Assembly (NCBI GenBank): GCA_051362555.1
Contig: CM120649.1
Coordinates: 5,456,001 to 5,520,000 of the forward strand
Length of the DNA stretch: 64,000 nt
Direction of reading: 5' to 3'
From: Lingula anatina
Lineage: Eukaryota; Animalia; Brachiopoda
The notes under the pieces were generated by a model. The model was not told where the DNA came from. It did not search any database and saw only the letters and a program-made list of their open reading frames with translations. Position 1 is the stretch's first letter; every line of letters starts with the position of its first letter. Both the position numbers and the translations under genes were made by a program. Positions 4,952-47,851 of the stretch are shown here, piece by piece.

Positions 4952-5023
4952 TTCCGATACCGGGAATCGAACCCGGGCCGCCTGGGTGAAAACCAGGAAT
5001 CCTAGCCACTAGACCATATCGGA
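4952..5023 (-). tRNA. tRNA-Glu (anticodon TTC)
   Basis: Reverse complement TCCGATATGGTCTAGTGGCTAGGATTCCTGGTTTTCACCCAGGCGGCCCGGGTTCGATTCCCGGTATCGGAA is 72 nt with intact stems, A and B boxes and a TTC anticodon. An oligo-T Pol III terminator follows (4943-4949). Confidence 0.96.
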
Positions 5024-6489: not shown

Positions 6490-9400
6490 TTAGCCGTAGC
6501 AACGGAGACGCACTGCACTGTAATAGTAATATCTGACGTATCGCCTACCGTAGCGGTAAATGACAACGTATCGACGAAGAGTAATACGGCGATAGTAACA
6601 ACCGCGCTTTTGTCGACTGTTCCCTGAAATGTAAAACACATCAAACAACATAAAACACATTGACCAATTTTAAGTACCAAAGCATATTGGCATCTAATGC
6701 AAAGGCCATACGTAACATTTTTTTGTTCACAAAGTTGAACAATAGAACTCGATCTCTGACTCACGGATTCAATATCTTTATCTTACACGATAAACCAATA
6801 TTGTACCAAAGCTAAAAGAAACGTTATATTGATCAAAATAATTAACCATGTCAGCCGATTCAACCACGATTTATTAACTGGCTGCAATAACTTCTTTCAA
6901 GTTTGATTTTTTTGTATTTCCGAATTTCAGGCCTTTAGACCCAAAGTGCATAGTTCAACACATTGTTTAATAGGATGAAAATATAATAAAAGTAACAAAC
7001 ATTCTTAATATAAGTATGAAGATAAAGGTATGCATGAGTTCCACTGATTCAATGGTCTTGTTGTATTTTTTTCTTATTTAAGAAATCATTTTGACATATT
7101 AGAATAAGTATAATAATGCCTCCTTTCTTTCTCACCTGCCGGTGCCTTAGTGGTGGCGCCATCTACAGCACCGTCATCCTTCTCCGTCAGCCAATACGCC
7201 TCCAGATCCTTACAAAAGTCCCGTATTTTGGGACTAAGGAAGGATCTGTCCTTAATTGGAGAGGAGTTGGCAACGTATTGTGTTTGTTCATCCTCATCTG
7301 GGTTATTGATCTCGTCGTTTCTCTGAAAGAAGAATAATTTAGGATAATGTAACCCTTAATTATCATCCAGATGCCGTCATTGCGGTTTAAATGTTTTTGC
7401 TAGGGCATTATGAGTTCAATGACATATTTTCATCAAACAAAGGCATTATTTTGCTTTATAAATGTTAAAATCTTAAATAAGACTTTTAAGAAAAATCGCT
7501 GTCAAGGTTTTGGAGTACTATAGTGTCATTAAATTAACGGTGATCGTTGGTTCTTAGGTAAAAGAGAAACTTGAGAAATCGACTTTAACCCAAAATCGCA
7601 ATTATGACGTCATGTTAATTAATTAATGTTAATTAATTTAGTCACTGAACACTGAAGATTTATTTATTACCCAAAAAAATGTATGTAAGCAGTAAATAAG
7701 GAGTTTTGGGCGATGTGTGGCAATATGCTAAAGCTACCCGTCAAATGTCTATTTCAAGTATTATCATACAGTTTTCCATATTCAGTAAGCAAACGTAAAT
7801 AGAATTGCTCGTTCAACATTTAATGCTCTATGGTACTGGTTGCCTCAATCAAACAACACTTTAATCAAATTCGTCATTTTCCACGGATTGTTAAAGAGGG
7901 TGGGGGTGGGGGGGGGGGGGGGCAGTGGCCTCAATTTTGTGATAAAACTTTGAATTTCTGCATGGAGTTGGAAAACATTTGAATCTTTAAAAAATACTTA
8001 CAGCCTTTTCAAGACTGTTGGCCACGTCCTTGCTGTCAGCCTCGTCCGACTTGTTCATTGGCGTCACGTAGCAGGCAAACCTATTGTTCATCTCCATTTT
8101 GTACACCACAAGACCCTAAAATGGTGATTATGAATACCTTTATTCTTTTAGGCTGCAACAATAAAGAAAGTAAGTCATTGCAGTTATCTGGGTCATGTAA
8201 TCATACTTTCTCTGCCGATAACCAGAAATATTCTGTTCAGTAAGATTCGGCATCATGGCATCCAGAATTTTGATTTTAATAAAGGAAATATGACGCTGAT
8301 AAGGTTACCTGTATATTTTATACCCCGAATTAAACAACTGATTCTTACCATTTAATACTTCAAAAACTTTAAAGTGCTGTTATTAATATTTTGGTTTTAT
8401 CTTACCCTTGGGTTATCCATGGCAACGTGAAATCGCTCATCTGGAACGTTGTACACGGTGACATTGTCCTTGACATTGACCTTAATATTCTCATTTTCAC
8501 TCGTGCCGTCTTTGTTAGTGAAACGAAGGTGGTACTCCTGAAGAAAGACACCTTATTACGTTGATATTTCAGTGTTTTTTTGACGTTACTGTCGCGTTAG
8601 TACGCCATTGACAAGTGCCACATCACAATGACGCCAGAATCTGTTACACCAAACGAATGAATTATGAAAAAGTAGAACACATGTCATTAAAACAAAACAG
8701 TATTGATAAAAACAATAGAAACAGACATGGAATGTAAATAAATGGAGACTTCAAACATAGTATACTACAGTTAGTATGCCCACCTTCCACACATCTTGTG
8801 CTGCATTGTTAGAGATGTGAACTGCTCCCAATATTCCACCGACAGCAACAGCAACAACAACAATGACAGCAACAGCAACAATGATGTACTTCTTGTACGA
8901 CGCCTTGATCTGAAATCAAAAGTTTATGTATGAATCAGTCAAGGTGGCCAACATTTTGAAGACATTTTTAAAATGACTCACAAGCACTTTAAGTAACTTC
9001 ACATCATGTCTTTGTTTACCTCGTAATTCTCTAACCCCCTTTTCCAAATTCACATGCATTTGAAGTAACTTTACGTAATGTCTTTGTTTGGAGTTCGTTT
9101 GGCATTAATTCTTTATAACCCCTTTTCTCTTATACATCATGTTAAGTCTAAAGAGGTTAAGTCAACTTGTTTGGTAGTCCGTTTGAGGACTAAGAATCCC
9201 TTTGTCTTGGTTTACCAGTACCAGTATGATAACAGGAGTTCGATTCCCCACAACTAGTTACGACGGTGTCCGCATTATTCACCTATTTGTATATTTCACT
9301 CTTGACTTAATTTGGTCGGTTCCAGACGGACATAGTTTTTAATGTGACCTTCAACATCGTATCACAACATTTCCATAATTAATAGTGCAGTTTATGTTTA

Positions 9401-10240
9401 TAGATTTTGTATAAAAAAAGTCTTAAATGATTTAAATCAAATTTCAGCTGCTGATGAAGAGAAGAAGGAAGAGGCTCCTGCAGCAAAAGAGGAGTCCGGC
9501 GGTCTCTTTGATCTCTATTTGCCTGGATAGTCTCTTTCCCCGAGGAAGTTTAGATAGACATCAAAATGTTTGAGACATACAGCGATCTCAATGAACTAGA
9601 TTAAAATAAAATACAATAAAATGAAATAGAACAAAATAATGCTTCATTTTTATGAAATTAAACTTTCTCATTCAATGTCTGTATCATACTTTCGATAGGT
9701 TGGCTTTTCGAACATCCTCGTTTCTATCATTCGTTTTCTCATAAATTCCTGTTTGCTGTATTTAAGAATTTTTGAATCTCTTTTTTTTCCTTAAAAGGAT
9801 AACAACTCTTCGTATGAGATCTATATTTTACTATAAATACACAGTAAAAAAACTGACGAAAATATAATAATTTCTATTTTACCACAAAAACGGCAGTTAT
9901 AGCAATTATTCTTAAATCTGTGTTTGTCTTCCAATCACGTGACCTCCATAGATGGCTATACTCTGTAATTATCTCATAAGAGATTATTACAAAAACACTT
10001 CTCATAAAAAAAGGCGAGACTAACTTCGAATGTAGAAATGGATTCATTAACCATCAGTAAGTATGGAAAAATTATCATTTACACCAGGAAAATTCATTTT
10101 TTGGCCCAAATGAACAGTTGTTATCATTTTAACTTAGTATCCTTGCCACGTACCTCAGCGTCAGTTTGTCGAGGAGACGCACTATCCGTGACAACGGTCA
10201 CGCTTGGGTCGATCGACTTCTCGTTCACGGTTGGCAACAT
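6490..10240 (-). CDS. BRICHOS-domain precursor G1 (259 aa); predicted mature peptide GCYYRRITLRRYVVIYRYGRRYVRYYYYSAVRLRCYG (37 aa, 2 Cys)
   Basis: Six GT-AG exons: 10240-10154, 8909-8784, 8537-8406, 8115-8002, 7322-7136, 6623-6490 (intron phases 0,0,0,0,1); open throughout. Membrane anchor [22 protein letters not shown]; BRICHOS hallmarks AMDN, FACYVTPM, DFCKDLEAYWL; RQKR furin site; TATAAAA at 10314-10320. Most divergent paralog. Confidence 0.9.
9448..9512 (+). pseudogene. Fragment resembling the C-terminus of acidic ribosomal stalk protein P1/P2
   Basis: After tttcag the sequence reads ADEEKKEEAPAAKEESGGLFD, like the P-protein tail (EEKKEE...EES-DDDMGFGLFD) with the DDDMGF part missing. 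It lies in G1 intron 1 on the opposite strand. Confidence 0.55.
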
Positions 10241-15512: not shown

Positions 15513-16597
15513 ATCATGTGACTTTCTGGGATCAAGGTCAAGTTTACGACCAATGATTGCGCCTATAGCTAGCCTCTGGAGAACGCCCCAATTTGTGTAT
15601 GTATCATCAAAGGGACTGCTGTTTAAGCAACTTATCTATATTTTATAAATATCTTTCATCGATGATAGTGACAGTTTTTTCCCAATAAAATTGCAAACGA
15701 GGACTAATGTGTTGGGAATATGTTGAGTTGTTTTATGAATTCATCTTAAACAGTGCAACACAAAGACATTACAAGTATGGACTTCGAATATATCATGCAT
15801 AGGTGAAGTTTGAGTAAATGAAATGGTCCATTTCATTTTTACCAATGTTTCATGAAGGTTTTAATTTTTTAATAATTGTATAACAGAACGGTACATTCCA
15901 ACCGTGAGATTGTTTCGGTGTTCGGTTTCGGTTTCGGCTTTTTTTTAAACATTTTTCAGACTGTCATGTATTTGCACCGCGTTTATAATTCATAAATAAA
16001 CGGGGCATTGTAAAATACAACTAGACACGCACGTGTAACGCACACAATCCGAGAAATAAAATAATTTCAGCCTGATCGAATCATCAAAGAGTCTTATATT
16101 TATTCTCGTTTGGAAGCATAACACAGACGCATGGGTCACAGCTGGCAGCATCTTGAAGGGTTTCCTGTCTCTATAGAGCAGGTATCAAAAGAAGCCAGAA
16201 AACCATAAAAGGGAGAGAATGAACACACTCTGTACTTGGTAAAAACGCGCCAAAAACGCGCACTTGCCTTGTTTTCACACCAGTGGTATCTGATTTATCA
16301 TAATTAAAGACTGAATGCAGGTTTTGCGACCTATTTATGCAAATGCAATCACCCAGGAGTTATTTTCAGTGCTCTTTTTTACGTTTTATTTCCTCAGTAT
16401 TTAACAGGATGTAGATAAGCAACTGTCATGTGTATGTAAAAATGAATAACATTTATCCCATTGACGTCTAAATAGCCTTCGAACAAACTAAATACGTATC
16501 AACCGCCCTATATTAGCCATAGAAATCAGTATTGATAATAGAAATCAAATAAAACCGCATCATATACGTCAGTGTCAAACTTCCTTACGTTTATGGC

Positions 16598-16638
<41 letters not shown>

Positions 16639-17622
16639 TAATTTAATAATAACATATTAAAAAGAAATAGTAAATCTTCTAGATTTACCACAGAGCATTT
16701 GAGTAAATGCTCTCTTCTTGAACATTTTATGGATTTTATGGATTTTTCTTAAAACCATTAAAACCATAAAAAGCAAAAAAAAAAAAAAAGAAAAAAAATC
16801 CTTTTAATGTCTAAATGATAATTTAAAGAGTCCGTTTCCACTCCTCATCCAAGGAAATAACTGAAGATGCATTGAATCTAGGAACATTCTGAATTACCAT
16901 ATCGCAGGGAAAGTCTGAAAAATTAAAATGTCTGTATACAAGTTTCTTAAAAAAAAGGAGCATGGCGTTTCAACATACCAATAAAATTCTGTCAAGTGAC
17001 TAGGCCGTTTGAAAAAGGGTGGCAACATCGGAACTCATAATACGCTTATGTTGTCTCTTTAAAAACTATTTACTTTGTTAACACAATTACAGAAGAGGTA
17101 TGCAGTGACATTTCACCGACCGCAAATGAATGAAAGTGCACAAACACAAATTTATGTCTTTGATAACACAACAAAAACATAATGTATGTCTTTTTACCTC
17201 TTTTATTAGGTAAATGCCACACAATCAGTAACTGTCGCAAGTTTTTTTTTTTCTTTTGCTTTATTAATTTGGCAAAATATATACGTAGCAGGAAAATCGA
17301 CATTGTAACCCCAACTTACTATCTTCTTGAAAGAACATTACTTTTTCAAATCCCCATGTTTGTAACTTATCAGTTCATCATTCAATGAAGTTCGCAAAAC
17401 AATTCTTTATCTTCAGGTAGCCAGTTTGTCGTACAAGGTCTTCGTTCACAATTAATGACTCTGTTCGTTTATATTCTAGGGTGTGTCGCTGTGTGTGTGT
17501 TTGTGTGTGTGTGTGTGTCTGAGAGAGAGAGAGAGAGAAGCCGGAAATAATTCTCCAGCTTAGCCGAGGTGTTGCACTCAAAAAGTAAGCTAAGTGACAT
17601 TACTGACATTTCGCGATGGCAT

Positions 17623-19535
17623 TTAATAACGACACCTGTGGCACCACACCCAAACCACACGCCTGATGCAAACACGTCTACACCTTTTACAAAATAAACA
17701 GCGGATACATATGCAAATGCGTCGCACCCTCCGGCAACGGTACCTATAGCAGCCTCGCTTTTGACGATGAACTCCTGAAATATAATATAATATAATATAA
17801 TATAATATAATATAATATAATATAATATAATATAATACAACGGGAAGAAATTGAGACCAAAGGGACCTGCAATTTATATTGTACGTCCGATGCGTCTAAA
17901 TACAAAGTAAGAAAGAAATCTCACGTCGCTGCTATACAGGTACATTCCCGAGACATGTCTAGTGCTTACCTGCCGTGCCTCGAGTGTTGGCGCCATCTAC
18001 AGTATTGTCGTCCTTTTGAGTAAGCCAGTATGTCTTCAGATCCCTGCAGAATTCCTGCATTCTGGGACTTAGGAAGGACTTGTCCTTGATCGGGGAGGTG
18101 TTGACAACGAATTGCCTGTGTTCATCATCGGTGTCTTCATCATCGTCATCTGTTGTACTTTCATTCTAAAGTCAAAATGGAAGGTTAAGTGAGATCTAGT
18201 TATTCAAAGCTCCCGTGATTTTCATTTTTAAAATTGACCTGACATTTTTTAAATAAAATTAAATACAAGGTGCAAGTGTCAGCACAAATTCAAAGTCTGC
18301 ATATACAAAGTAAATTGTTCCGATTGCTCCATTAGCCCTGATCACATTTCTAAATGTAACTTCATATTCTAAAACTCATTCAATAGTATCGTTTATGTAA
18401 AAAATGTAAAAAAAAAAGACTGAATAAATATAAAGTTAGTCGTACCGGTTGTTCCAAAGCGTTGGCCACGTCCTTGCTGTCAGTCTCTTCAGATTTGTTC
18501 ATTGGAGTCAAGTAACAAGCAAACTTGTTATTCATTTCCATCTTGTATCCTACCAGACTCTGAAATGATGAAATCTGCATATGATAGTTTGAAAAGAAAG
18601 ACTTTAAGGCTAAGCAAGCAAACTTGCTGTTCATGTCCATCTTGTATACTACCAGACTCTGAAATGATGAAATCTGTTTATAATAAATTGAAAACAGACT
18701 TTAAGGTTGAAACTGGTGGTGTAATCTGCCCTTTTACAGAAATCCGTCGCTCGTTAACCAACTAATTAATTCAGTCTGGCCTTTTTTTGTTAAAATGATA
18801 AAAACGTATTTTGATGGAATGAAACATTTGCAACGAAAAAAAAGGAAATGTCACCACAGTCTTCCAAATTATCTTTGTTGATCTATCCTACATTTTTGAC
18901 CGTCTTCCGACAGACAAAATTAGATACCCGACAATGTAAACTTCAAAATCTGAGCGTCTTCTGGAAGACCCAGAAGACGGCCTCAATCCGCCCCTGCATT
19001 GAATTAGTCCTGAAATGACGGTGCAACGCTCTTAAGAACTCTTAAGAATTTTAAAACAACATGTTTTCCTTTTGACATACATCAGGTAGAATAAAACTTT
19101 ATTGTTTATTATTTTTCTAAGTTAAGTTGAAACCTCCACTCACTCTCGAGTTGTCCATGGCGACGTGGAACTTCTCGTTGTCCACGTTGTACACGGTGAT
19201 GTTGTCCTTCAGATCAACCTGAACCTTTTCGTCAACTTTCTTCCCTTGTTTGTCGGTTAAGCGGAGATGGTACTCCTGAAGAAAAAGCAATGTCACTGGA
19301 AAACCATATAAGGCAATAGGGGTTATATTGGCATATTGTGTTCCCGATAAGCTTAAAAAGAAACAGAAAAAAATGGCACGTTTTGCCGATTAGATTATCC
19401 TTACTAGTGCTCGCAGAGCACGGTGCTGTTTTAAAGCAATTCTCTTCTCTGCCTGTATCAGATGTGTTAATCAATATAATTTCAAAATATTCAGTTTAAC
19501 CCTACTGTATTTTTATTATTATTATCATTATTACG

Positions 19536-19572
<37 letters not shown>

Positions 19573-20345
19573 GTGATATAGTATGCTTCCACCACATATA
19601 CCTTCCACACATCCTGTGATGCCTTGTTAGAGATGTGAACTGCTCCCAACGTTCCACCGACAGCAACAGCAACAACAACAATGACAGCAACAGCAACAAT
19701 GATGTACTTCTTGTACGACGCCTTGATCTGAAATGTGTGAAGATGGAATTAATCAGACATTTAATTAGCTTTCCAAATGCTCTCTCACTTGTGGCGTATT
19801 TCATTAGAAATACGTACCTTTAAAAGAAGGTGGTAATCTGTAAAGCCGATATAATATTATGATTTTTATACAATGTTTGTACAACAGGTTGAAAATGAAA
19901 CTGACAAATTTAGAGATTCCAGATGACAATCTAAACACATAAAATAATAACGCTGTTCGTTTTTCCATAGTTTACCAGTATGAATTTAAAAAAGAGTGCA
20001 CCTTTATGAAGTTAACATGTCATTTTTTATATAAAGATAATCTTGATACTTTTAGATAAATTAACTCACAAAATCCGATTTAAACATTGCAAAATGTTCA
20101 GACTTAAGCATCGTCGTTCTTTAAACTATTTAAGATAAAAAATACAAGTGTGCACCAAATTATGCAGCTGTTTTAGCATGGTTGCACATCCCTGACATCC
20201 CCTGTATAAGGCTGAAAAATTCTTGGCCTAAACATCTTTATTAAGTGGATATACTTACCTCGGCGCTGTTACGTCGAGAGGATCCACCATCTGTGATGAC
20301 CGTCACGCCGGATTCGGCAGACTTTTCGTCGACTGCTGGCAGCAT
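17623..20345 (-). CDS. BRICHOS-domain precursor G2 (268 aa); predicted mature peptide GCYRYRCRRVRRICICIRCLFCKRCRRVCIRRVVWVWCHRCRY (43 aa, 10 Cys)
   Basis: Exons 20345-20259, 19727-19602, 19275-19144, 18559-18446, 18165-17970, 17774-17623; all GT-AG, open frame, RQKR site, TATAAAAA at 20431-20438. Confidence 0.92.
17781..17836. repeat. (ATATA)n pentanucleotide microsatellite at the exon-6 acceptor of G2
   Basis: Direct reading. Equivalent tracts lie at 38141-38217 (G5) and 50813-50876 (G7), with related AATAG/AAAAT tracts in G3, G4 and G6. Confidence 0.95.
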
Positions 20346-20430
20346 CTTGAAAAATAGCAGGCACCAAACAAGTCCTTCCTTCTCCAGGTAGAGGGAAACC
20401 GTCGTCTGATTCGTGTTCGGCGCACATCCC

Positions 20431-20500
20431 TTTTTATAGATCCGATCTTGTTTGAAAATTCACCAAGATTTTACATAAGAGGAAAAACGCCTTCCAAGAA
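20431..20500 (-). promoter_or_regulatory. G2 core promoter: TATA box plus upstream TTACATAA and TTCCAAGAA (STAT/GAS-type) motifs
   Basis: TATAAAAA lies ~90 bp upstream of the ATG, at a similar position in G1, G4, G5 and G7. TTC-N3-GAA at 20492-20500 is also found in G3 (29081-29089) and G4 (34792-34800). Confidence 0.55.
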
Positions 20501-21471
20501 AAAAAAGCCATTTCCATTTGTTTATTGACCACAAAACTGCGAACCTTGTTTTTCAAAAATGCATATGATGATGAGGGGCAAATGTCAAAACCAAGATAGC
20601 GTGCATTTAGGTTGTACTTTAGATGTTGCCTCAAATACTCCATGCTAAATATAAGCTTAAGCCCCAATGTACGGGTGATATCAAATATGCAATTTTTCCA
20701 TAAGATTCTCGCTGCAATAACCTGATTTATTTCGCTGAAACTTAAATAAGCCAAATACGCCTAAGACCACTCATTTAATCTAAACTAAAATGTCGCTGCC
20801 AACGTCATCCCACTGCTAAATCACCGGTTTCTCTTAAAGTTGCCATTACTAGCAATTAGGTGCCATGAATATTTAGTTGCACGCCGTCTGGAATCTCCCT
20901 TAAACTAGCACTGCCTGGATATTTGTAAGTCTTTTAATGTTATGCCATAGCATTACTGATACCAGCAAAATGTATACAGCTTCAAAGTTACATTAAAATA
21001 AATTTAAATTACTTTGAATGTAAAATGTGCACTGGTTTACTGGTTAAAGATATCATTCATTACTGGATAACATTATTATTATTATCAAAAGCAAGAATCA
21101 ATTTCAAGGCAACGATGTAAGGTTTTCCAGGAAAACTGCGATAAAGAAATATTAACTGCTAAAAAATTGTTTAAAAAGTTTTCAAAAGGCTGATGTAGAT
21201 CTTACAAAAAATTATAACCCTTCAGATTTGCTGTACTAGCAAAATTTGAAGTGCAACAGGGCATGTCAGCGCAAGATAGATTCTGCACATTTTTACCTCA
21301 TAAGACTGTACAGGGGTATAACCACCCAATGACTTTCAAATCGTTACGTAGTCGTTACATTATCATAACGAAATATTCCGTTATTTTATAGAAAAATTGC
21401 ATCAGCCGGGGTAAAGACTATGAAAGCTGTATGTTACCGTACTGTATCATCATCTCTAAAATGGACTCTAA

Positions 21472-21785
21472 GACCCCATTCCCATAGATTTTAGATCGAT
21501 CTATCCCTGTGGGAAGTCTCACTAGATTACTGATAGCTTAGCCGGCTTAAGCGTCTGTCCCGCCTACTAAAAGCTGTAAGGGGGTAATTAACTATGGTGC
21601 GTGTTCAGCTGACTGCAATTTAGCGTGAACCCCCAGGGAGTTAGGTCGATCTAATTCTAAATCTCTGGATCGATCTAAATCTCTGGGAATGCACTCTAAG
21701 ACTGCATTCCCACAGATTTTAGAACGATCTATCCCCATGGGGAGTCTCACTAGATTGTTCTCATCTTAGCCGGCTTAAATGTCTG
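21472..21785. mobile_element. PIF/Harbinger (Tourist-like) MITE: one full copy plus a truncated tandem copy
   Basis: Copy 1 (21472-21696) has inverted termini GACCCCATTCCCATAGATTTTAGATCGATC / GATCGATCTAAATCTCTGGGAATGCACTC and is flanked by TAA. Copy 2 starts at 21700 and is cut at ~21785. Same family as 42288-42502. Confidence 0.7.
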
Positions 21786-21884
21786 ATAGCGGCATAATTT
21801 CGATTTCGGAGTGTAAATTGCAAAATCGGCTATTACTTATATATCTCCTTTTACCTTAGCATCTGTGAAAATCGTGATACTTTT

Positions 21885-21886
<2 letters not shown>

Positions 21887-21923
<37 letters not shown>

Positions 21924-22528
21924 TTATTCGAGCATTAAATGTGACAGTTACATTTGTTAGCCCTCTATACTACAAATAGATAAATAAATAAATAGTTATA
22001 CATCGCTATGGATTACTACTTATACAGTGTTGAGGAATATTTATTACAGTGTATACGGTGTTTAAAAATACTTATCACAATTGAAAATAGTTAAAAATAC
22101 TTATTACAATTGTAAATAGTTCTATACACTGGGTGAACACACATTTTTCTTTGATAGGCTTATAGCTATATGTATCTAATGTGCCATACTTATGGTTCAT
22201 ATAATATAGCAGGATGAGGCTACTTCAGTGTGGCAGATGCTCATTTCTTTTCCAAATTGCCCTCTGGATGTATTTACCAACAGCGTGCAATTCTTTCTCA
22301 TTTTCTGGGTTTAGTATGATTTTAACCTTCTCGTCACTGCTTGCTAGGTGATGCATGTCACATTTAGGGAATTGTTTTAACATGCCCTCCCTCTCTTTTA
22401 CATGGTGTCTACATTCTAGTAGGAAGTGCACTTCGTCCTCCATTGCAGGACAGTGGGGACAGAATCGTTCCTCGCGTGGTGTTTTAGGTCTGGTGTAGCG
22501 TCCTCTTTCCATTTCGAGAATAATCCAG
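21887..22528 (-). mobile_element. 5'-truncated LINE (C-terminal CCHC domain of ORF2, 3' UTR, (TAA)n tail)
   Basis: LEMERGRYTRPKTPREERFCPHC...EDEVHFLLEC; AATAAA plus (TTA)n tail; TTTTTA target duplication (21881-21886 and 22529-22534). The empty site is visible in the paralogous block at ~42800. Confidence 0.88.
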
Positions 22529-24250
22529 TTTTTAGAACTGTTCAATAAAACACTGTAATGATAGAATCATGACTCCATAACAAAAACATTTAAACCATAG
22601 TAATACTAAAGGCAGGGGATTGTAGTTCCAAATTTTTACGACACATGTGTCAATTTCAGTGAGAAATTCATCTTCAGTTAAGTTACGATACTAATTGTTA
22701 TCTCACCTTGAAATAAAAAGGGTATGCATTTTCCAAAAGCCCATGTACGTTAAATTTAGAATTTACTGATTGCACAGTTAGGGGGGCCTACGGCTATGAT
22801 ATGATACACAATAAAATTGCATGTTAAGATATTTTTCAATGCAGCTTTCTAATCTTCTGTTAATCTTGTAATGTAATTCTGTTAATCTGCTTGATTTCGT
22901 TTTCACATGTTGTCTGATTGCGCTCCGTAAGACTTATGGCACCCATCGCTTGTGACTGCACAGTTCAGGTGGCTATGCTTATCACGTGACACCACAGTAG
23001 CCCCGCCCATCCCATAGCAACTGAGGCGGAGTTAAGTGGCAGTATCTATTCAATTTTAAGAAGTAAAATAAAAACATAAACGGAATGTGAACGCCTGTCT
23101 TATTTTTCAATAAGCAAAATGGTCGATACATTATTTGAAAAAAGACAAACAAAAATCTTCTTCCTGGGTATTTTGATGATCATAAACCCTGTCGTTGCCC
23201 TTAGCGCCTGATATAAACGCGTGTGTAACGCGTAAAATAACGATCTTTGGACAACGTGCACGTATACATTATTACGTGTACATTAATGCCTTAAGAATGA
23301 AATGACGATAAACAATATATTAAACAACACTTTATGTCTTTTTAAGTATCTGATTAATCATACTACACGCACTCCTCGTGAAATTTAAACTAATTTCCAT
23401 GGATGAGAGACAACGCGTGAAAAAAAATGCCTTCCACGAAAACTGAAAAATATATTTGTGGTTTTTCTTAACGCGCAAGTATGCATAATTTTGGCGTTTA
23501 CAAATGAAGAACGTTTAGTCTGTCACGTGCTTAACAGATGTATTTCCTGAAAAAATGTATTAGCTATTTAAATGGCCTCTAAAACGTGCTAACTATGATT
23601 ATGGCAAGTTGGAGGGAGAGAGAGACAAAATACCTCTTTGCATTTAACTTTCATTATTTTTCATGAAATGCCATACATTTACATTTACATTTTATATATA
23701 TCACTCTCCACCTCTATGGAATAATCACAGGATTACCATTTTCGAAATACACCGTGTGGGCGTGGCTGATGTATATTTCAAGAACACGTTTTGCAATTTG
23801 GATGCTTTCATGGCCACATAACTCATGTAAAGATATAAAGACATAAAAAGTTCAGTTCAGCAGCATGTGGTGTCTTTCGACACACGACCGTCATACAGTT
23901 AACACAAATATAAAATAATTACAATCAGTAACTGTCATAACTTTTATTTGATTCAGTTGACGATCGTATAAATCAGTAGGTCTATTCTACTTCTTTTGAA
24001 GTACAATGCATGCATAATCGCTCATTCAGTGATATAAAGAATGACGCCCGTTATGTAGATAAGCAACTAATACACTGTATGTGAGAATTAATGCCATTAT
24101 AATCCTGTTGACGTTTAAATAGCCTTCGAACAAACTAAATATGAATCAGCCGCAATAGATTAGCAATAGAAATCAATATTGATACATGTAGTAGACATCA
24201 AATAAAACCACATGAAATACGTCAGCGTCATGCTTCTTCGCTTTTATTAC

Positions 24251-24292
<42 letters not shown>

Positions 24293-25681
24293 GAGGGAGG
24301 ACGGGGATGATCTACTTTGAAAAAATGCGTATAATAAATATGATCTATTTGGAAGAAAAATATTTGTCTTTTTCTTTGCCTTGAGACATTTATTCCACAT
24401 GGATGTTTCCAGGAGCGTCGTGCGTTTGTTTGAGATCTATTTATATAAACAACTTTCACTTACATCGCCTTAAATCGTGTGGATATGGCTAAGCAGGAAC
24501 ACTTGTAAAATGAGGACCAAGACGCACGTATAACTTTGCATACATTAGCTTAATAACGATGTCACTTTACAAGCGCATTGATTAAGCGTCTCTCTCTCGC
24601 AGATCATTAACAATTTGTCCCTGAAGTGCGATGTCATTACACAATTATATATTCAATTATTTTTCGGAAGCTATATGTTGATTTTATCGTTTAAAATTAT
24701 TGTACTGCTGTACATGTATATTTTACCATTTTGAAAAAAATAATTTAATAACTAAACATATCAAAAAGACATAGTAAATCTAGATTTACAGCAGGGCATT
24801 TTAGTAAATGCTTGAGCATTTTACAAATTTTATGGATTTTTATAAAACAATTAAAATCATTAAAAGCAAAAAAGCAAAAAATCCTTTTAATGTCTATGTG
24901 ATAATTTAAAGAGTTCGTTTCCACTCCTTTTCCCAGGAGGTAATTGAAGACGGATTGAATGTAGGAACCTTCTGAATCACCATATCGCAGGGAAATTCTG
25001 AGACAGCAGAAAAAAAAGAAAGATGAAATGATTTTCATTTCACTTTAATGCTAACAGGGAATAAATTCTGTTTATCATAACTTGGCTTCTCGCATCCTCA
25101 ATATTTAAAACCGAAGAAAAGAACGATTTTTAAATTAAAATTGCTGTAAACAGCTAAATCGTTTCTAAAAGAGGAGTACGGCGTTTCAACATTTCAGTAA
25201 AAATCTGTCAAGTGATAGGTTGGTAACACCGGATCTCATAATACGCTTATATTGTCTCTTTAAAAACGCTTTATTTTCATACCACGATTACACAAATGAA
25301 CCGACCGCAAATGTTCATTTGTCACCGACCGCAAATGAATGAAAGTCCACAAACACAACTTTAAGTCTTTGATAACGCAACAAAAACATAAGATATATCT
25401 TTTTGCCTCTTTTATTGGGTAAATTCCACACAATCAGTAACTGTCACAAGTTTTCTTTCCTTCATTTTGCAAAATAAGTAGCAAGGGAAATCTGCATTAT
25501 ATCCCTGACTTAGAGACTATTTGAATATATCTTATATATTAAGCCCCCATGTGTGTTACTTATCAAGTAATCATACAATTAAGTTCGCCAAATATTTTAT
25601 AATCATCAAATAGCCACGGTGATGTGCAGGTTTTGATCTACAATGGTTGACTATGTTCATGTATGTTCTAAAGTGCGTGAC

Positions 25682-25752
<71 letters not shown>

Positions 25753-25829
25753 CCGGAAGCAATTATCCAGTTCTGCTGAGGTGTTGCAATAAGCTTAGTG
25801 ACATGAATGACATTTCGCGATGGCGTTTA

Positions 25830-27017
25830 TTAGTGGCACTTGCGACACCACCCACTAGATACACGCCAAACACAAATACGTTTACAACTTTTACAAGTTT
25901 TACAACGGATGCAACTGCAAATGCGACGCAACCTCATGCAACGGTGCCAATGACAGCCTCGCTTTTGACGATGAGCTCCTGAAATAGAATAGAATAGAAT
26001 AAAATAAAATATAACAGGAAGAAATCGAGAGGAAAGGAACCTGCAATTTATATTGTGCGTCCTATGTGTCTAAATACAAAGTAAAAAAGAAATCTCATGT
26101 CACTGCTACACACAGGAACATTTCAGAGATTTTTCTTGTGCGTACCTGCCGGTGCTTGGGTGTTGGCGCCATCTACAGTATTGTCGTCCTTCTGAGTAAG
26201 CCAGTATGCCTTCAGATCCTTGCAGAATTCCTGCATTCTGGGACTTAGGAAGGACTTGTCCTTGATTGGAGAGGTGTTGGCAACGAATTGCTTTTGGTCG
26301 TCATTGGTGTCTTCATCTTCATCATCGTCATCTTTTGTTCTTTCATTCTATAGTCAAAACGAAAAGGTTCAGTGAACTCAAGTTATTCAAAGCTTGTATT
26401 CACTATAATTTTTTTAAATGAAAATTCAATACAAGGCGTATGTAAAGATGCTCACACAGATTCAAAGTCCGAATAGGTATCAAGTTCATCATACCGGATG
26501 TTCCAAAGCGCTGGCCACGTCCTTGCTGTCAGTCTCTTCAGATTTGTTCATTGGAGTCAAGTAACAAGCAAACTTGTTTTTCATTTCCATCTTGTATACT
26601 ACCAGACTCTGAAATGATGATATCATGTTATAGTTTTACAAAGACTTTTAGGGTCAGGCAAAGCTGTTTAACGAGAACGACTGGCTTATATATATTGATA
26701 AAAATGCATTACATGTATTTTTCAGTTTCCGTAACTGGGCAACCTTTACAATAGGTCCATGTAGGACCTTAATGCTTTTGTTTTTATACTTTCTTTTAAT
26801 TGCCCTCCACTGTGGATCTGACAAAAGAACGGACCGACTCTCACATTCAGTTGCTTTTCTCCTGAAACTGCTGACGTCCTCTGTTTAGTCGTCGCTCGTT
26901 AGCAATCAATTTGTATGGCTTCTTTTTTGTTAAATATAATAAAACACGTTTTGAAATGGAATAAAACATGTGCAACGAACAGAGCATTAATAAATTGTAA
27001 AGGAAATGGAGTAACAA

Positions 27018-27085
<68 letters not shown>

Positions 27086-28925
27086 GCGCCACAATAATGA
27101 ATATTGTTCTGGAATGATGCAACGGTCTTAAGAACTCAACTGAGAGGTAATTTTAAAACAACACTTTTGGCAAAGTACTAGTGGAATAAGCCTTTATTGT
27201 TTATTTATTTTCTCAATTAGGTTGAAACCTCTACTCACCCTCGAGTTGTCCATGGCGACGTGGAACTTCTCGTTGTTCACGTTGTACACGGTGATGTTGT
27301 CCTTCAGATCAACCTGAACCTTTTCTTCAACTTTCTTCCCCTGCTTGTCAGTCAAACGGATATGGTACTCCTTGAAGAAATAATGATAATAACTGGAAAA
27401 CCATATAAGGCAATGAGATTCGCTTTCGTGGACTATTTTCATACATTGGTATGTATTGGCATATAATGTTCCCCAACAACTTAAAAAAGAAACAAATATT
27501 TTGACACCCCTTGCAGTTGCAAGTATCCATGCATTTGCTCGCGGTGACGATATTTTTAAAGTACTTCTCTTTTCTGTCTGTATCAGATATGTTAATCAAT
27601 ATAATTTCGATTTTTCCCTTATTTAAGTGATCTTTTTAAGTCACTGAACGGACTTAATTTTCTTTTCTTTACGGCACCCGGGTCTGGAACATCAAGTGGA
27701 CCTAGTTGCTGAGATTGGCCGGACACAGTATACCCACCTTCCACACATCTTGTGCTGCCTTGTTAGACATGTGAACTGCTCCCAACGCTCCACCGACAGC
27801 AACAGCAACAACAACAACGACAGCAACAGCAACAATGATGTACTTCTTGTGCGACGCCTTGATCTGAAATCAAAAGTTTATGTATGATCTGCAATATATG
27901 AAATAAAGTATATCGAATGATAAACTTAGTCAGACATTGAGTAGCTTTCCAAATGCTTTCTGCATTGTGGCGTATTCTACTTACCTTTAAAAGCTGGTGA
28001 TGATATGTAAAAATGACATAATAGTAATACTTATGATTTTTAGACATTGTACAACAGGTTGAAAACGAAATTTAAAGATTCAAGAGGAGTTTTATCTGAG
28101 ATTCGTGACAATTTTAACATAGAAAACTACGCTGTTCGTTTTTCCGATTATTTATTTTAAGTATATAAATAAAAAAATGCCCCTTTATGAAGTTTATATA
28201 ACCAACGCTTCTGTTTATCACTATAGACCGCATCTAAAAAACTTTGTTGCCGACATGGCAGAAATTACATATATAGTTATTATTTTTCATTTCATTTCCA
28301 CAATGTTCTTATGTTTATTTAGATTGTGTTAGAGAAGAAACTACTAACACTAACACGTGGTCAACTGTATAAAAGGCAATGTCGCATGTGCTCTGTAAAG
28401 ATTGATTTTTTTTGATAAGATCACATAAATTATGTTATTTAGTAAACTTGGTTTATTTATCTCGATATTTCAATTTATTGTTATTATTATATATTTTTTT
28501 TCTTTTAATAGTTTTCACCAGTTTCTGTTCAGAACAATTCTGTTCACACTGCGTGAATAAACAGCAGTCATATCCAACGATGTTTCTTCGTTTTTACTCG
28601 TGATCCGCTATAAACTTTTTAATAATTTCACTCACAAAATCTGAATTTAAACATCGTAAAATGTTCAGACCAAAGCATCGTCGTTCTTTAAACTATTCAA
28701 GATAAAAATACATGTGTGCACCACATTATGCAGCTGTTTTACAGCTTAGCATGGTTACACACCTCTGACATCCCCTGTATACTTAGGCTAAAAAAAAAAA
28801 ACTCCTGGCCTAAACATCTTCAAAGTAGATACACTTACCTCGGCGCTGTCACGTCGAGAGGACCCACCATCTGTGATGACAGTCACGCCGGATTCGACAG
28901 ACTTTTCGCTGACTGTTGGCAGCAT
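25830..28925 (-). CDS. BRICHOS-domain precursor G3 (269 aa); predicted mature peptide [42 protein letters not shown] (42 aa, 10 Cys)
   Basis: Exons 28925-28839, 27863-27738, 27370-27239, 26608-26495, 26347-26146, 25978-25830; GT-AG, open frame, RQKR site. The TATA position reads CATAAAA. Confidence 0.92.
27023..27082. repeat. (TA)n microsatellite
   Basis: Direct reading; another lies at 48331-48408. Confidence 0.95.
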
Positions 28926-32132: not shown

Positions 32133-34053
32133 CTAGTAGCATCTCTTACAGTAACCACGAGTGATTCTATAAAAACAATACCGACGAGAACCAATCCTGA
32201 AACAAATGCGTTGAATCCTTATGCAACGGTACCAAGAGCAAGCTCGCTTTTGGCGAATACCTCCTGAAATAAAATAAAATAGAATAGAATAGAATTTAAT
32301 GTCCTGTACATTCTATATACAGAGTATTTACCTACATTTTTACTGTTGTAGGTATTGCATCGCGTTATGGTAAAGATTACAGAGATTTATACTGTGCGTA
32401 CCTGCCGGGGTTCGGGTGCTGACGCCATCTACGTCCTTCTGAGAGAGCCAGTATGCCTCCAGATTCCTGCAGAATTCCTGCATCCTGGGACTTAGGATGG
32501 ACTTGTCTTTGATCGGGGAAGTATTCACCTCGAAGCTTTTTTGGTCATCATCATCTTCTACATCATCTGTCGTGTTCTGGACGGTGTTCTAAAATAATAA
32601 CTGTACAGGTAATGTCTCAAAAGACTATTTCATGCCTTGCATTATTGTCATGTGTTTAAAATTTATATTTTGAAACACAGTCAATACCATCCTTTATGTA
32701 CAGAAGTAAACAAAAAGACTGAATAAATATAAAGTTAGTCGTACCGGTTGTTCCAAAGCGTTGGCCACGTCCTTGCTGTCAGTCTCTTCATATTTGTTCA
32801 TTGGAGTCAAGTAACAAGCAAACTTGTTGTTCATTTCCATCTTGTATACTACCAGACTCTTGAAATCAAAGGGGCAATTCACTTTTGTTAAATATGATGG
32901 AATATTCCCACAAAATATTACATCTCTACGATTCTAATAAGTTCTACTTAGATATAATGTACAATGCAACTAGCTCGGCAGTGCTTTATCATATTTTCAT
33001 GTTTTTCCTTGAAATTACGGTACATTATTATTATTTTTTTTTTGTTTGTTTAGGTCCCTTCTGGGGATCTGTCATAAATATGTCAACAATTTGTAGGCAA
33101 AGCAAATGCATTGTTCAAGTGAATGAGCCATCCAAAAGTAATGCGTTGCCACTAGGCACTTCATCACAGAGTAAATAATCAATGTAACTGCCACGAAGCC
33201 GGTGACGTCATAAATCCTTTACGTTGCTAACTCAGCCTGTTTGTTGATGTGTTACGGGCTGAGGTTACTCCACCCCACGCCAAGAGCCTAACTCAAATCT
33301 TCTCTGTAGAATGGTTTTTACATGTAGCCATCCCAACAGTGTCCCAACAGGGTATTTAACATTTCTAATCAACAATGTAAATTAGTAAACAACAACGGCT
33401 TGTTTTACTTGTACTGTGTCAAAAGGTAATTATAGTTTAGAACACCTAAGCTGAGATATATAGAATTTACTGAATTCAATGTGGTGACATTTCTAGATTT
33501 ATGTTTCAAGTCTTTTTAATTTTGCTGTATATTATTAATTTTATATATTAAGCAACTCACTAAATTAGCAAAGTGGGTTGACAAGCGGAGACTTAATGTA
33601 TTATATGTATCATCTTTATCATACTAGGTGTAACGACCACAGCAGCTAAACCATGGGTTGATCGTTTTTATTAATAATTTTCTAAATTCAGTTAAAACCT
33701 CTACTCACTCTAGAGTTGTCCATGGCGACGTGAAACTTTTCGTTGTTCACGTTGTACACGGTGATGTTGTCCTTCAGATCAACCTGGACATTTTCGTCAA
33801 CTTTCTTCCCTTGCTTGTCAGTTAAACGGAGATGGTACTCCTAAAGAGATATTTTATAGCGATGTTGATGATGAGAACTTTTGCTTTCATTGAAAATATT
33901 TTTGCGTTAAGTCCCATTGATTTTCTTTAAAAGCAGATCTATACTTATTGCTTTACAACTGATACCCTTTATGCGTAATAATTCTAACCTTTTTCTCCAG
34001 TGATCTGATTGTTTCATTTAATAATCAGTATAATTTTAGAACATCTTTACGAC

Positions 34054-34095
<42 letters not shown>

Positions 34096-34620
34096 TCTCT
34101 TTTTCTTTACTGTTGTAATATAGTAAACCCACCTTCCACACATCTTTGTTAGACATGTGAACTGCTCCCAATGTTCCACCGACAGCAACAGCAACAACAA
34201 CAATGACAGCAATAGCAACAATGATGTACTTCTTGTACGACGCCTTGATCTGAAATGTACCGAATTTAAGGATAATGGAACCCAAAGAACAGACCCAAAG
34301 TTAAAAAAATAATAATAATAAATTAAGGCAATTCAAAAGAATGAAAATATTACACGATATGTTTGTGCAATTGACATGACCTAAAGGTGATATTTGTTTT
34401 AGTATGGAATGGCCTTTCGAAAAGTAATTTCAATTTCTAGCCTTTACAGCTTAATATGGTTGCACACCCCTGTTACCCCCTGTATAAGGCTAAAAATTCC
34501 TGGTCTTAACATTTTCAAAGTAGAAACACTTACTTCGGCGCTGTCACGTCGAGAGGACCCACCATCTGTGATGACTGTCATGCCGGATTCGGCAGACTTT
34601 TCACTTACAGTTGGCAGCAT
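32133..34620 (-). CDS. BRICHOS-domain precursor G4 (255 aa); predicted mature peptide ACSWYRCIRIQRICFRIGSRRYCFYRITRGYCKRCY (36 aa, 6 Cys)
   Basis: Exons 34620-34534 (an extra in-frame ATG lies at 34623), 34249-34133 (3-codon deletion), 33840-33709, 32858-32745, 32588-32402, 32263-32133; GT-AG, open frame, RQKR, TATA at 34722-34730. Confidence 0.92.
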
Positions 34621-37974: not shown

Positions 37975-39940
37975 TTATTTACCAAAGCATCTGTACCTAT
38001 AACAGTATCTAAAAACGTATGTATACCTATATCGGCAATACCACCGAAAACCGATCCTGACCCTAATGCATATCCTTATTCGAACCCGGCATATGTAGCG
38101 TATCCGGTAGCAAGCTCGCTTCTGGCGTTCACCTCCTGAAATATAATATAATATAATATAATATAATATAATATAATATAATATAATATAATATAATATA
38201 ATATAATATAATATAATCGAAACGGTGGGTAATGTTCTTAATGCCTTGTAGATTCTACATGTATAAGGTAAAAAGTGAATTTACTGCACGGTCATAGTTG
38301 TAAGTATTGTATCGGGTAATAGTTAGCATCAGATATTTATATCGTGCGTACCTGCAGGGGTTTGGGTGCTGGCGCCATCTACAGTGTTGCCGTCCTTCTG
38401 AGTTAGCCAGTATGCCTCCAGATTCCTGCAAAATTCCTTCATCCTGGGACTTAGGAAGGACTTGTTCTTGATCGGGGAGGTGTTGGCAACGAATTGTTTT
38501 TGTTCATTATCTTCATTTGTCGTATTTTCGACGGTGTTCTAAAAGCATGATGGTATAGGTTAGGTTACGGTTTTATTCATATATCTTGCACATGTTTAAA
38601 TGCCACTTTATATCTTTAAACACAATTAAAAGCATTGTGTATGTAAAGATATAAACACAGATTCAAAGTCCGAATTAATATGAAGTAAATCATACCGGTT
38701 GTTCCAAAGCGTTGGCCACGTCCTTGCTGTCAGTCTCTTCAGATTTGTTCATTGGAGTCAAGTAACAAGCAAACTTGTTGTTCATTTCCATCTTGTATAC
38801 TACCAGACTCTGAAAGGAAACCAACGGGACAATTCACTTTTGTTAAAAACGATGGAATATTCCCACAAAATATTGCATCTCTGTTATTCTAATAAGTTCA
38901 ACTAGCTCGGCAGTGCTTTATTATATTTTCATGTTCTACCTTCAAATTACAGTAAATTATGTTTTTGTTTGGTTCTTTCTGGCGACCTGTCATAAATTTG
39001 TCAGCAATTTGTTGGAAAAGTAAATGTCATGTTCAAGTGAATGAGCCAGTAAAGTGGAGAGAATACCAGAGCCATTCAAAGTAATGCTAGGCCACTAGGC
39101 ATTTCATCAGAGTTAGTAATTAATGTAGCTGCCACGAATCCGGTGACGTCATATATATCCTTTAAAGTGCTAACTCAGCCTGTTTGTTGATGTATCCCAG
39201 GGGATACACTCCACGCCAAAAGCCCAGCTTAGTTCTTCTCTGTAGAATGGTTTTTAGTGTAGCATCCCAACAGTGTCGTTCAAACAGTTGGTTTAACATT
39301 TCCACCACCCCCGCTACCCCCAGACCCCACAAAAAAGACCGACCAATTTTTTAGCTGCTATGGTGGTTATACCTAGTATGTTAAAGATGATAAATACAAT
39401 ACATTAAGTCTCCGATTGTCAACCCATTTTGCTAATTTAGTGAGTTGCTTATCTTTTTAGCATCTAAAATACAAAAACTAAAAAGACTTGACACATAAAT
39501 CTAGAAATGTCACCACATTGAATTCAGTAAATCCTGTACACCTCAGCTAAGGTGGTCTAAACGAGGTTTACCTTTTGACATAGTACAAGTAAAACAAGTC
39601 GTTGTTTATTATTTTTCTAAATTCAGTTTAAAATTCCACTCACTCTCGAGTTGTCCATGGCAACGTGGAACTTCTCGTTGTTCACGTTGTACACGGTGAT
39701 GTTGTCCTTCAGATCAACCTGAACCTTTTCGTCAACTTTTTTCCCTTGTTTGTCGGTTAAACGGAGATGGTACTCCTGAAAAAAAAGCAATGCCACTGGA
39801 AAACCATATAAGGCGATGGGGGTATATTGGCATATAGCGTTCCCGATAAGCTTAAAAAGAAACAGAAAAATTCGCGAGCCTTGCCATTGAGATTATCCAT
39901 ACACGTGCTCGCAAGTCTCTTCTCTGCCTGTGTCAGCTAG

Positions 39941-39985
<45 letters not shown>

Positions 39986-41185
39986 TTATTTTTCTATGGC
40001 GCATTCCATTAAAAATCTCAATGCGCCTTTCAACATTCACTTAAAAGAGCTAAATAACACAATATTAGTATAAGAACACATTACACATTTTTAAAGGACT
40101 AAGAACTAATTTAAAGAACCAATTATTTCATATTCTAAAATGATAAGAAACTAAAATGACAACATTTAAAGTTAATCATAAAATTACAGTACACCTTATT
40201 AAAAACTAAAATTAACTTTATTATAGTTACTGATAGGCTATTCTAAAAATATGAGTCTTCAAAAGCTTTTTAAAAGTATCTCATGTCCCCTGCTGCTCGT
40301 ATTTCAGAGGGTAAGGTGTTCCAAACTTTGGGTGCATATATAATATCATTAATCAATATAATTTAAAAATATTCGATTTTACCCTACTATAGCGATATAG
40401 TATACCCACCTTCCACACATCTTGTGCTGCCTTGTTAGAGATGTGAACTGCCCCCAATATTCCACCGATAGCAACAGCAACAACAACAACGACAGCAACA
40501 GCAACAATGATGTACTTCTTGTACGACGCCTTGATCTGAAATATATGAAGATAAAATTAATCAGACATTAATTGGCTTTCCAAATGTCCTCTTCTTTGTG
40601 CCGTATTTCATTAGCAATACGTACATTTAAAAGAAGGTGATGATCTGTAAAGCCTTTATAATATAATGATTTTTATACAATGTCTGCACAACAGGTTGAA
40701 AACGAAACTGACATATGTAAAGATTCCAGAACATCTATGTATATATGACTGAGATTCATGACAATTTAAACACAGAAAATAACACTGTTCGTTTTCCCAT
40801 GGTTTACCAGACTGAGTATAAATTTTAAAAAAGTGCACCTTTATAAAGTTAAAATATCATTTTTATATAAAGAGAATCTTGATGCTTTTAGTTAAATTAA
40901 CTTACAAAATCCGATTTAATCATTGCAAAATTTTCAGACCTAAGCATAGTCGTTCTTTAAACTATTAAAGATAAAAATACAGGTGTGCACCACATAATGC
41001 AGCTGTTTTACAGCTTAGCATGGTTGCACATCCCTGGTATCACCTGTAAAAGGCTAAAAAATTCCTGGCCTAAACATCTCCAAAGTGGATATACTTACCT
41101 CGGCCCTGTCACGTCGAGAGGATCCACTATCTGTGATGACAGTCACGCCGGATTCGGCAGACTTTTCGTCGACTGCTGGCAGCAT
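37975..41185 (-). CDS. BRICHOS-domain precursor G5 (268 aa); predicted mature peptide ACYRIRYICRVRIRICIRVRIGFRWYCRYRYTYVFRYCYRYRCFGK (46 aa, 6 Cys, GK amidation signal)
   Basis: Exons 41185-41099, 40535-40410, 39775-39644, 38809-38696, 38538-38352, 38135-37975; GT-AG, open frame, RQKR, TATA at 41271-41278. Confidence 0.92.
39947..40348 (-). mobile_element. 5'-truncated L2/CR1-type LINE 3' end in G5 intron 2
   Basis: YAPKVWNTLPSEIR motif, 3' stem-loop (GGCGCATT...AATGCGCC), (TTA)n tail and TTAAT target duplication; absent from the matching intron of G2. Confidence 0.75.
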
Positions 41186-47127: not shown

Positions 47128-47851
47128 CTAGTAGCATCTGTAACAGTAACCACGAGTGATTCTATAAAAAGAAACCCGACGAGAACCGATCTTGAAGCAA
47201 ATGCGTTGAATCCTTATGCAACGGCACCAAGAGCAAGCTCGCTTTTGGCCAATACCTACTGAAATAAAATAAAATAAAATAGAATAAAATACAATTTAAT
47301 GCCCTGTACACTCTATATACAGAGTAATTAGTGTATTTACCTACATTTTTACTGTTGTAGATATTGCATCGCGTTATGGTAAACATTACAGAGATTTATA
47401 CTGTGCGTACCTGCCGGGGTTCGGGTGCTGGCGCCATCTACTGTGTTGTCGTCCTTCTGAGAGAGCCAGTATGCCTCCAGATTCCTGCAGGATTCCTGCA
47501 TCCTGGGACTTAGGAAGGACTTGTCTTTGATCGGGGAAGTATTCACCTCGAAGCTTTTTTGGTCATCGTCATCTTCTACATCATCTGTCGTGTTCTGGAC
47601 GGTGTTCTAAAATAATAACTGTACAGGTAATTCATGTCTTGCATTATTTTCATATGTTAAAAAATCATATTTTGAAACACAATCAAAAGCATCATTTATA
47701 TATAAAGAAATAAACAAAAAGACTCAATAAATATAAAATTATTCGTACCGGTTGTTCCAAAGCGTTGGCCACGTCCTTGCTGTCAGTCTCTTCATATTTG
47801 TTCATTGGAGTCAAGTAACAAGCAAACTTGTTGCTCATTTCCATATTGTAT
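47128..47851 (-). pseudogene. G6: 5'-deleted duplicate of G4; residual peptide ACSWCRCIRIQRICFKIGSRRVSFYRITRGYCYRCY
   Basis: Exon 6 at 47258-47128, exon 5 at 47606-47411, exon 4 from 47749 broken at ~47851. There it joins sequence homologous to ~35210, so exons 1-3 and the promoter are deleted. RQKR is changed to GQKR. Confidence 0.88.

Follow-up and report, generated by a model that had tools for sequence, protein, structure and literature searches.

The closest known cases to the peptides described here are the hairpin antibiotics of annelids, which are cut from BRICHOS precursors and carry one or two disulfides, and OAF, for which four nested disulfides are predicted. The annelid antimicrobial peptides (AMPs) of this kind are arenicins, alvinellacin, capitellacin, abarenicin and HfBRI-25. 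We analyzed 64,000 nucleotides (nt) of the brachiopod Lingula anatina (contig CM120649.1, positions 5,456,001 to 5,520,000), called here the window, together with RefSeq proteins. The window contains a tandem array of seven minus-strand copies (G1-G7) of one six-exon BRICHOS-precursor gene (Table 1). Two of the copies, G2 and G3, encode ten-cysteine peptides, and the original prediction, made from the DNA letters, had proposed that each folds into a ladder of five nested disulfides.

The complete copies encode, in order, a short cytosolic tail, a Val/Ala-rich hydrophobic anchor, the BRICHOS domain, an acidic linker, RQKR and a cysteine-containing peptide. The annelid AMPs are alike in having a hydrophobic N-terminus, BRICHOS in an acidic pro-region and a basic cleavage site, and their Arg-rich hairpin is closed by cysteines, as is predicted for G2 and G3. 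The available parts of four papers describe annelid precursors of this layout that release membrane-damaging hairpins (PMC10745061, PMC6265681, PMC11767717, PMC13001179), and BRICHOS domains have been modelled holding C-terminal clients as hairpins (available part of PMC10182729). Alvinellacin is likewise a multigene family, but its chaperone diversifies while the peptide is conserved (PMC5431198, available part); in G2 and G3 the peptide is the variable part. Further, the annelid AMPs have 20-25 amino acids (aa) and one or two disulfides, whereas the G2 and G3 peptides have 42-43 aa, five predicted disulfides and a brachiopod host. For the mature OAF polypeptide, which follows a furin-like site, the prediction is likewise an extended antiparallel hairpin held by nested disulfides. 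It differs in its 70 aa, its four disulfides and its high conservation from fly to human, and the accessible text states no antimicrobial role (PMC9714404). AmBRI-44a, HfBRI-75 and HfBRI-91 are BRICHOS-derived as well and have 8 to 11 cysteines. However, AmBRI-44a is defensin-like with four disulfides (as cited in the available part of PMC11767717), and HfBRI-75 and HfBRI-91 (11 cysteines) are not cationic and gave no confident fold (available part of PMC10745061). Hepcidin (four disulfides) and theta-defensins (three) are the most cross-linked single-hairpin AMPs described in the accessible text of a 2026 review (PMC13001179). Hepcidin has a CxxC bond like the one predicted here (available text of PMC6121404), but both lack BRICHOS and have 18-25 aa, and the accepted pairing of hepcidin is not nested.

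We observed that both peptides, each following RQKR, have cysteines at positions 2, 7, 14, 16, 19, 22, 25, 29, 38 and 41, exactly where the original prediction had placed them. Its charges of +15 for G2 and +12 for G3 agree with the counts of Arg and Lys (15 and 12, no Asp or Glu in either). The two peptides are identical at 23 of 42 positions. Most residues other than cysteine differ, as had been noted (19 of 32 positions, 13 identical), and the probability that all 19 differences avoid the ten cysteines by chance is P = 0.0008. This exact spacing was present in three of the 128 proteins compared (P0001-P0003, all from Lingula). The G4 peptide has cysteines at 2, 7, 14, 23, 32 and 35, and the alignment puts a six-residue gap and the four extra cysteines in the turn, which is also what had been described. 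Judged by these comparisons, the ten-cysteine frame is real and under selection.

The peptide exons of G2 and G3 are 72% identical in DNA, compared with 92-96% for exons 1-5. Such fast divergence is in keeping with a defence role, or with a precursor that has been homogenised. Compared with intron 5 and the near 3' flank, the peptide is less similar (91/126 vs 157/186, gaps excluded, Fisher P = 0.010). A farther 3' stretch has diverged as much as the peptide (73.8% alike), which weakens the case for positive selection; such selection was considered and not established (proportions of differing sites outside the cysteines 0.32 nonsynonymous vs 0.28 synonymous).

All introns of G2 and G3 run GT..AG, and the reading frames are open. 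The stretch originally singled out begins at the G2 stop codon (17623) and ends at the acceptor of G3 exon 6 (25978). G2 exon 5 matches BRICHOS (Pfam PF04089, 29.7 bits, cut-off 25). In 82 aligned proteins the BRICHOS cysteine pair C130/C195 (P0002 numbering) and the last Arg of RQKR are invariant (82/82 each), and D112 is present in at least 90%. The anchor, coded by the Val/Ala-rich exon 2, is a helix at 34-67 in the P0002 model. For the BRICHOS fold, Foldseek gave the BRICHOS of proSP-C (2yad) at probability 0.99, but with E = 0.10, and it gave no match at E ≤0.001 for either the precursor or the peptide model. All hits of the first two database searches (9 and 13) were RefSeq entries of Lingula anatina, annotated as 'uncharacterized' or as 'leukocyte cell-derived chemotaxin 1-like'. 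P0001 is a 100% match to G2 exon 5 and has the G2 peptide at its C-terminus, and the C-terminus of P0002 is the G3 peptide.

G3-like transcripts are expressed. In RNA runs X7, X8 and X9, chosen by species label, the G3 peptide exon was covered evenly at a depth of ~110-290 reads and the intron at 0-4, and four X7 reads spanned the junction of G3 exons 5 and 6. No reads fell on this exon in X5. Family exons were deep in X7, X8 and X9 and barely covered in X1, X4 and X5. The reads differ from the G3 peptide exon at 16 sites in 13 codons. Because 14 of the 16 differ in nearly all reads, the reads stem from another population or a close paralog. The read variant has eight residue changes, none at cysteine, while Cys2 and Cys29 show silent codon changes. 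Depth where paralogs are pooled, at the end of exon 5, reached ~3,200-8,400 reads, far above the G3 peptide exon; therefore ten-cysteine transcripts look to be a minority. Two other stretches, ~21470-21760 and 18850-19000, were covered in each of the four runs by reads whose ends hang loose on either side, and are probably dispersed repeats.

We ran AlphaFold on the G2 peptide (alignment of nine Lingula tails) and on the precursor P0002 (82 sequences), as the original prediction had suggested, and obtained one long hairpin in both. The G2 peptide was predicted as a single hairpin with strands 2-18 and 25-41 (best pLDDT, a predicted score of the local distance difference test, 83.1). Strands 229-245 and 252-268 of P0002 set the same limits for the G3 peptide (block pLDDT 89-95). 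Both best models thus contain the single beta-hairpin that characterizes the beta-hairpin AMP class. In the model an Ile/Val patch lies near the head on one face of the ribbon, and Arg is found on both faces. The fold search VIA returned 6 of 48,161 chains at Z of at least 2 (best 3.3), all of them long hairpin arms of unrelated proteins. Some weak pore-stem rows in VIA reflect likeness of shape only and were not used as functional evidence. No knottin or defensin was found among these six rows or among the fold-search matches listed, and both models are two-stranded, which does not exclude such folds. Searching PDB sequences with a profile of the family yielded a single row, which was unrelated (E = 7.4).

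Provided that no bulge interrupts them, two strands of 17 residues imply a register whose partner indices add up to 43. In this register Cys2:Cys41 and Cys14:Cys29 are directly opposite, Cys7/Cys38 are diagonal on one face and Cys16/Cys25 on the opposite face, with Cys19 and Cys22 in the loop. We calculated strain in torsion space for one register and one hydrogen-bond phase, with backbone, beta carbon and sulfur only and in arbitrary units. With hydrogen bonds held to 17:26 and 7 starts, the nested pairing was the least strained of the 15 possible for the six head cysteines (17.5; next 30.9 and 34.8; the other twelve at least 49.4). With 40 starts for the top three, it reached 5.1 vs 30.0 and 25.5 (baseline 1.6). 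For the whole peptide, 2-41 with 7-38 gave 8.0 vs 66.9 and 63.0 for the alternatives (baseline 5.1). When the inner bonds were omitted, the beta carbons of Cys16 and Cys25 lay 5.2-6.8 Å apart in the four best of the six models shown and ~9 Å apart in the other two. The modelled ribbon measured 57.8 Å from residue 2 to residue 21. Only if the strand prediction is correct does this strain model tell the pairings apart.

The paralogs offer a separate view of the outer rungs. G1 and P0013 keep the outer pair alone (Cys2 and Cys35). Paired indices sum to 37, 39, 37 in five of the 11 six-cysteine tails listed (P0004, P0006, P0009, P0014, P0018), to 39, 41, 39 in P0007 and to 43, 45, 43 in P0021; the sums are shifted in P0005, P0010 and P0011, and P0008 has seven cysteines. 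The outer sums of G2 and G3 are 43, 45, 43. Since the paralogs keep the outer pair and the direct-diagonal-direct pattern recurs, the outer rungs are independently supported, and we are highly confident in 2-41, 7-38 and 14-29. The full nested set is, on modelling, probable. The best prediction is an irregular ladder, with two direct rungs, two diagonal ones (7-38 and 16-25) and 19-22 closing a CxxC turn. The nested pairing originally proposed therefore stands on the predicted hairpin, on its low strain and on the outer pair of G1, while the regular ladder does not. The inner two rungs depend on the predicted strands, since rival pairings fit too once the head strands are released.

Several observations weigh against this reading. 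Only two of the five G2 peptide models were confident (pLDDT 83.1, 82.9, 67.6, 63.6 and 59.9; predicted template modelling score 0.35), and register and hydrogen-bond phase were assumed from strand limits, not from S-S distances. Releasing the head strands gave best runs of 11.1 for the nested pairing and of 11.1, 14.6 and 16.4 for the rivals; releasing the ends gave 7.8, 12.1 and 12.6. The first, nested connectivity of hepcidin was later shown to be wrong (available part of PMC6121404), and the BRICHOS peptide AmBRI-44a is defensin-like (as cited in that part of PMC11767717 which is available). The accessible text of PMC13001179 covers 27 hairpin-antibiotic families, all of 11-25 aa and with charge of +1 to +8; G2 and G3 fall outside this range in length (42-43 aa), charge (+15 and +12) and cysteine spacing. 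Two residues separate the cysteines of the predicted 19-22 bond; in the families of that text paired cysteines stand at least three residues apart. Taken by itself, the sparing of cysteines in the read variant falls short of significance (P = 0.09). Further, the bin 17300-17693, into which part of the G2 peptide exon falls, showed depth 0 in 4/4 runs at 92% likeness, a threshold that would miss a diverged G2 allele.

The same results bear on a hairpin with three outer rungs in which the four added cysteines pair as 16-19/22-25 or 16-22/19-25 and form a compact head. Without the hydrogen bonds 15:28 and 17:26, these pairings fit sterically (11.1 and 14.6 vs 11.1 for nested), and both the revision of hepcidin to a non-nested pairing and the fold of AmBRI-44a speak for them. 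However, they cost 25-30 on the predicted register, against 5.1 for nested, and the beta carbons of Cys16 and Cys19 are ~11 Å apart there. Both AlphaFold models extend the strands to 18 and from 25, and the listed fold-search matches include neither knottin nor defensin. We consider a compact head unlikely.

The additional cysteines of the nested hairpin have a plausible origin. In G3 the codons of Cys19, Cys22 and Cys25 each begin one of three tandem 9-nt units, which have decayed in G2 (Table 1). A permutation test of this repeat (codons 19-27) gave P = 0.0007 for G3 and P = 0.48 for G2, and at the corresponding place G4 carries a Ser codon that differs from a Cys codon by a single base. Starting from a three-rung ancestor, point changes would have produced Cys16 and Cys25, and an 18-nt tandem duplication of the 9-nt unit would have added Cys19 and Cys22. 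The cysteine count would have stayed even because these two came jointly. Judging from the repeat, the extra cysteines probably arose by such duplication.

We propose that these BRICHOS precursors release five-rung nested hairpins as membrane-attacking host-defence peptides, and we lean slightly towards this reading as a whole. The anchor would place BRICHOS and peptide in the oxidising secretory lumen, where BRICHOS would hold the aggregation-prone hairpin during folding and the acidic linker would mask its charge. Furin-type cleavage at RQKR would free a cationic peptide of 42-43 residues. This would be one long beta-hairpin with nested disulfides 2-41, 7-38, 14-29, 16-25 and 19-22, of which 2-41, 14-29 and 16-25 would share one face and 7-38 would occupy the opposite one, while 19-22 would shut the turn. 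Arginines of the freed ribbon (~58 Å) would bind anionic microbial membranes, and the Ile/Val patch near the head would insert. Antimicrobial action is likely, as argued from precursor anatomy and annelid precedent. A bolder version is that the rigid five-rung ribbon of ~58 Å crosses the microbial membrane as one chain and assembles beta-barrel pores. No known single-hairpin antibiotic would then be longer or more cross-linked, and one array would carry one-, three- and five-rung versions, the last rung having been made in a single step by 18-nt slippage. We offer this only tentatively and find it doubtful.

A nested five-rung hairpin might instead be structural, adhesive or signalling (shell, mucus or amyloid-like fibre), as are vertebrate BRICHOS clients. 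The OAF, chondromodulin and Bri2 clients carry no antibiotic description in the accessible text on OAF (PMC9714404), some paralog tails are Tyr-rich and of low charge (P0014 net +1, P0007 +3), and the uneven depth of family exons between RNA runs, which bear no tissue label, would suit such a role. Against it stand the charge of +12 to +15 with Arg over Lys, the tandem expansion, and the faster divergence of the peptide exon, as expected of defence peptides. Moreover, the invertebrate BRICHOS peptides reported as tested in the available parts of PMC10745061 and PMC11767717 are antimicrobial. A non-antibiotic role appears quite improbable.

Cys19 and Cys22 lie in an exposed loop in both AlphaFold models, so they might instead join two chains into a covalent dimer. 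Five disulfides hold the rattusin homodimer together (available part of PMC11201828), and paired cysteines are at least three residues apart in 27/27 families in the accessible text of PMC13001179. However, the cysteine count is even, the 19-22 bond closes at little strain (5.1 vs baseline 1.6), and the Cys10-Cys13 bond of hepcidin has the same spacing (PMC6121404, accessible text; see also the available part of PMC4009444). We regard such a dimer as very unlikely.

A protein part behind a membrane anchor and a disulfide-bearing domain matures in an oxidising compartment. Because the peptide follows the anchor and BRICHOS, whose own cysteine pair forms a disulfide, it would mature there on the predicted topology. 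The metal-binding alternative of the original prediction, taken here as a reduced CxCxxCxxCxxxC core holding Zn, Cu or an iron-sulfur cluster, thus finds little support and is hardly credible: residues 16-38 weakly match ferredoxin-type CxxCxxCxxxC in 14 PDB sequences, but at chance level (best E = 0.28), the core has no Gly or Pro, G2 exon 6 matched no Pfam family at E ≤1, and the 9-nt repeat accounts for the CxxCxxC spacing, which therefore needs no metal site.

Nested disulfide hairpins have already been proposed for BRICHOS clients (OAF, in the available part of PMC9714404), and cysteine-rich BRICHOS tails are known. What is new is the combination, in a brachiopod, of 42-43 residues, a charge of +12 to +15 and ten cysteines in a predicted single hairpin. 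We found no description of brachiopod BRICHOS peptides or five-disulfide hairpins in the literature searched, mostly outside subscription journals and supplements. The claim that no five-disulfide BRICHOS hairpin is known held in this respect; however, the predicted ladder lies only one rung beyond the four predicted in OAF (same part of PMC9714404), and tails with at least ten cysteines are not rare. Among 98 more distant relatives, 68 have a furin-like site, and 8 of these 68 tails have at least ten cysteines; each of the 8 is longer (56-108 aa), with weak charge and another cysteine spacing. The proteins P0025-P0121 include many unnamed BRICHOS precursors with unusual tails, a large unexplored pool. 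We noted eight-cysteine tails of 40-41 residues (P0030, P0042, P0098), a 16-cysteine tail (P0039) and an alternating His-Ile tail (P0073).

BRICHOS antibiotics described in the literature surveyed are all annelid. If the proposed reading is true, the hairpin-antibiotic class would roughly double in length and would gain a fifth disulfide and a second phylum. Further, the array would be a ready-made one-, three- and five-rung series on near-identical chaperones, suited to testing BRICHOS templating of disulfide pairing and the effects of rungs on stability, salt tolerance and killing.

Table 1. Positions of the BRICHOS-precursor genes and their parts in the window.
Feature	Position	Strand	Remarks
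G2 precursor gene, 268 aa, six coding exons	17623..20345	-	BRICHOS Pfam match on exon 5
G2 coding exons	20345-20259, 19727-19602, 19275-19144, 18559-18446, 18165-17970, 17774-17623	-	
G2 ten-cysteine peptide, 43 aa, Arg+Lys 15	17626..17754	-	Identical tail in P0001; AlphaFold hairpin
RQKR furin-type site ahead of G2 peptide	17755..17766	-	Putative cleavage
G2 counterpart of 9-nt repeat, decayed	17674-17700	-	4/9, 6/9, 5/9 alike
G3 precursor gene, 269 aa, six coding exons	25830..28925	-	Spliced reads over family introns
G3 coding exons	28925-28839, 27863-27738, 27370-27239, 26608-26495, 26347-26146, 25978-25830	-	
G3 ten-cysteine peptide, 42 aa, Arg+Lys 12	25833..25958	-	G3-like transcripts; AlphaFold hairpin
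G3 three tandem 9-nt units, Cys19-x-x/Cys22-x-x/Cys25-x-x	25878..25904	-	8/9, 8/9, 7/9 alike
G1 paralog, 259 aa; 37-aa peptide	6490..10240	-	Cys2 and Cys35 only (outer rung)
G4 paralog, 255 aa; 36-aa six-cysteine peptide	32133..34620	-	Three-rung reference form
G5 paralog, 268 aa; 46-aa six-cysteine peptide	37975..41185	-	
G6, 5'-truncated copy	47128..47851	-	Exons 1-3 not found
G7 paralog, 257 aa; 35-aa six-cysteine Tyr-rich peptide	50681..53082	-	
Eighth copy, first coding exon, opposite orientation	63820-63910	+	

The array extends past the edge of the window, where the first exon of an eighth copy was found. G6 also lacks the start of exon 4 and is probably a pseudogene; compared with G4, Cys23 has been lost from its peptide and Cys5 is new, which breaks the symmetry of the ladder. 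In G2, a duplicate of the acceptor and first part of exon 4 (18615-18673, minus strand, 59 bases, 93% identical) lies just upstream of that exon. Between G1 and G2, positions 14130-15513 (plus strand) hold an apparent small three-exon gene for a secreted cysteine-rich protein, with a signal-like exon at ~14130 and a cysteine-rich exon at 14817. The frame 14817-15068 matched no Pfam family at E ≤1, and its cysteine spacing presumably resembles that of colipase or prokineticin. An open stretch of 430 aa between G7 and the eighth copy (60850-62139, minus strand) matches retrotransposon gag (E = 1e-9) and has a zinc knuckle; by these sequence features it is a Ty3/gypsy-type element. C-terminal Gly-Lys or Gly-Arg is the usual amidation signal. 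The G5 peptide (37978-38115, minus strand) ends in Gly-Lys and the G7 peptide (50684-50788, minus strand) in Gly-Arg, while the G2 and G3 peptides have no such ends.

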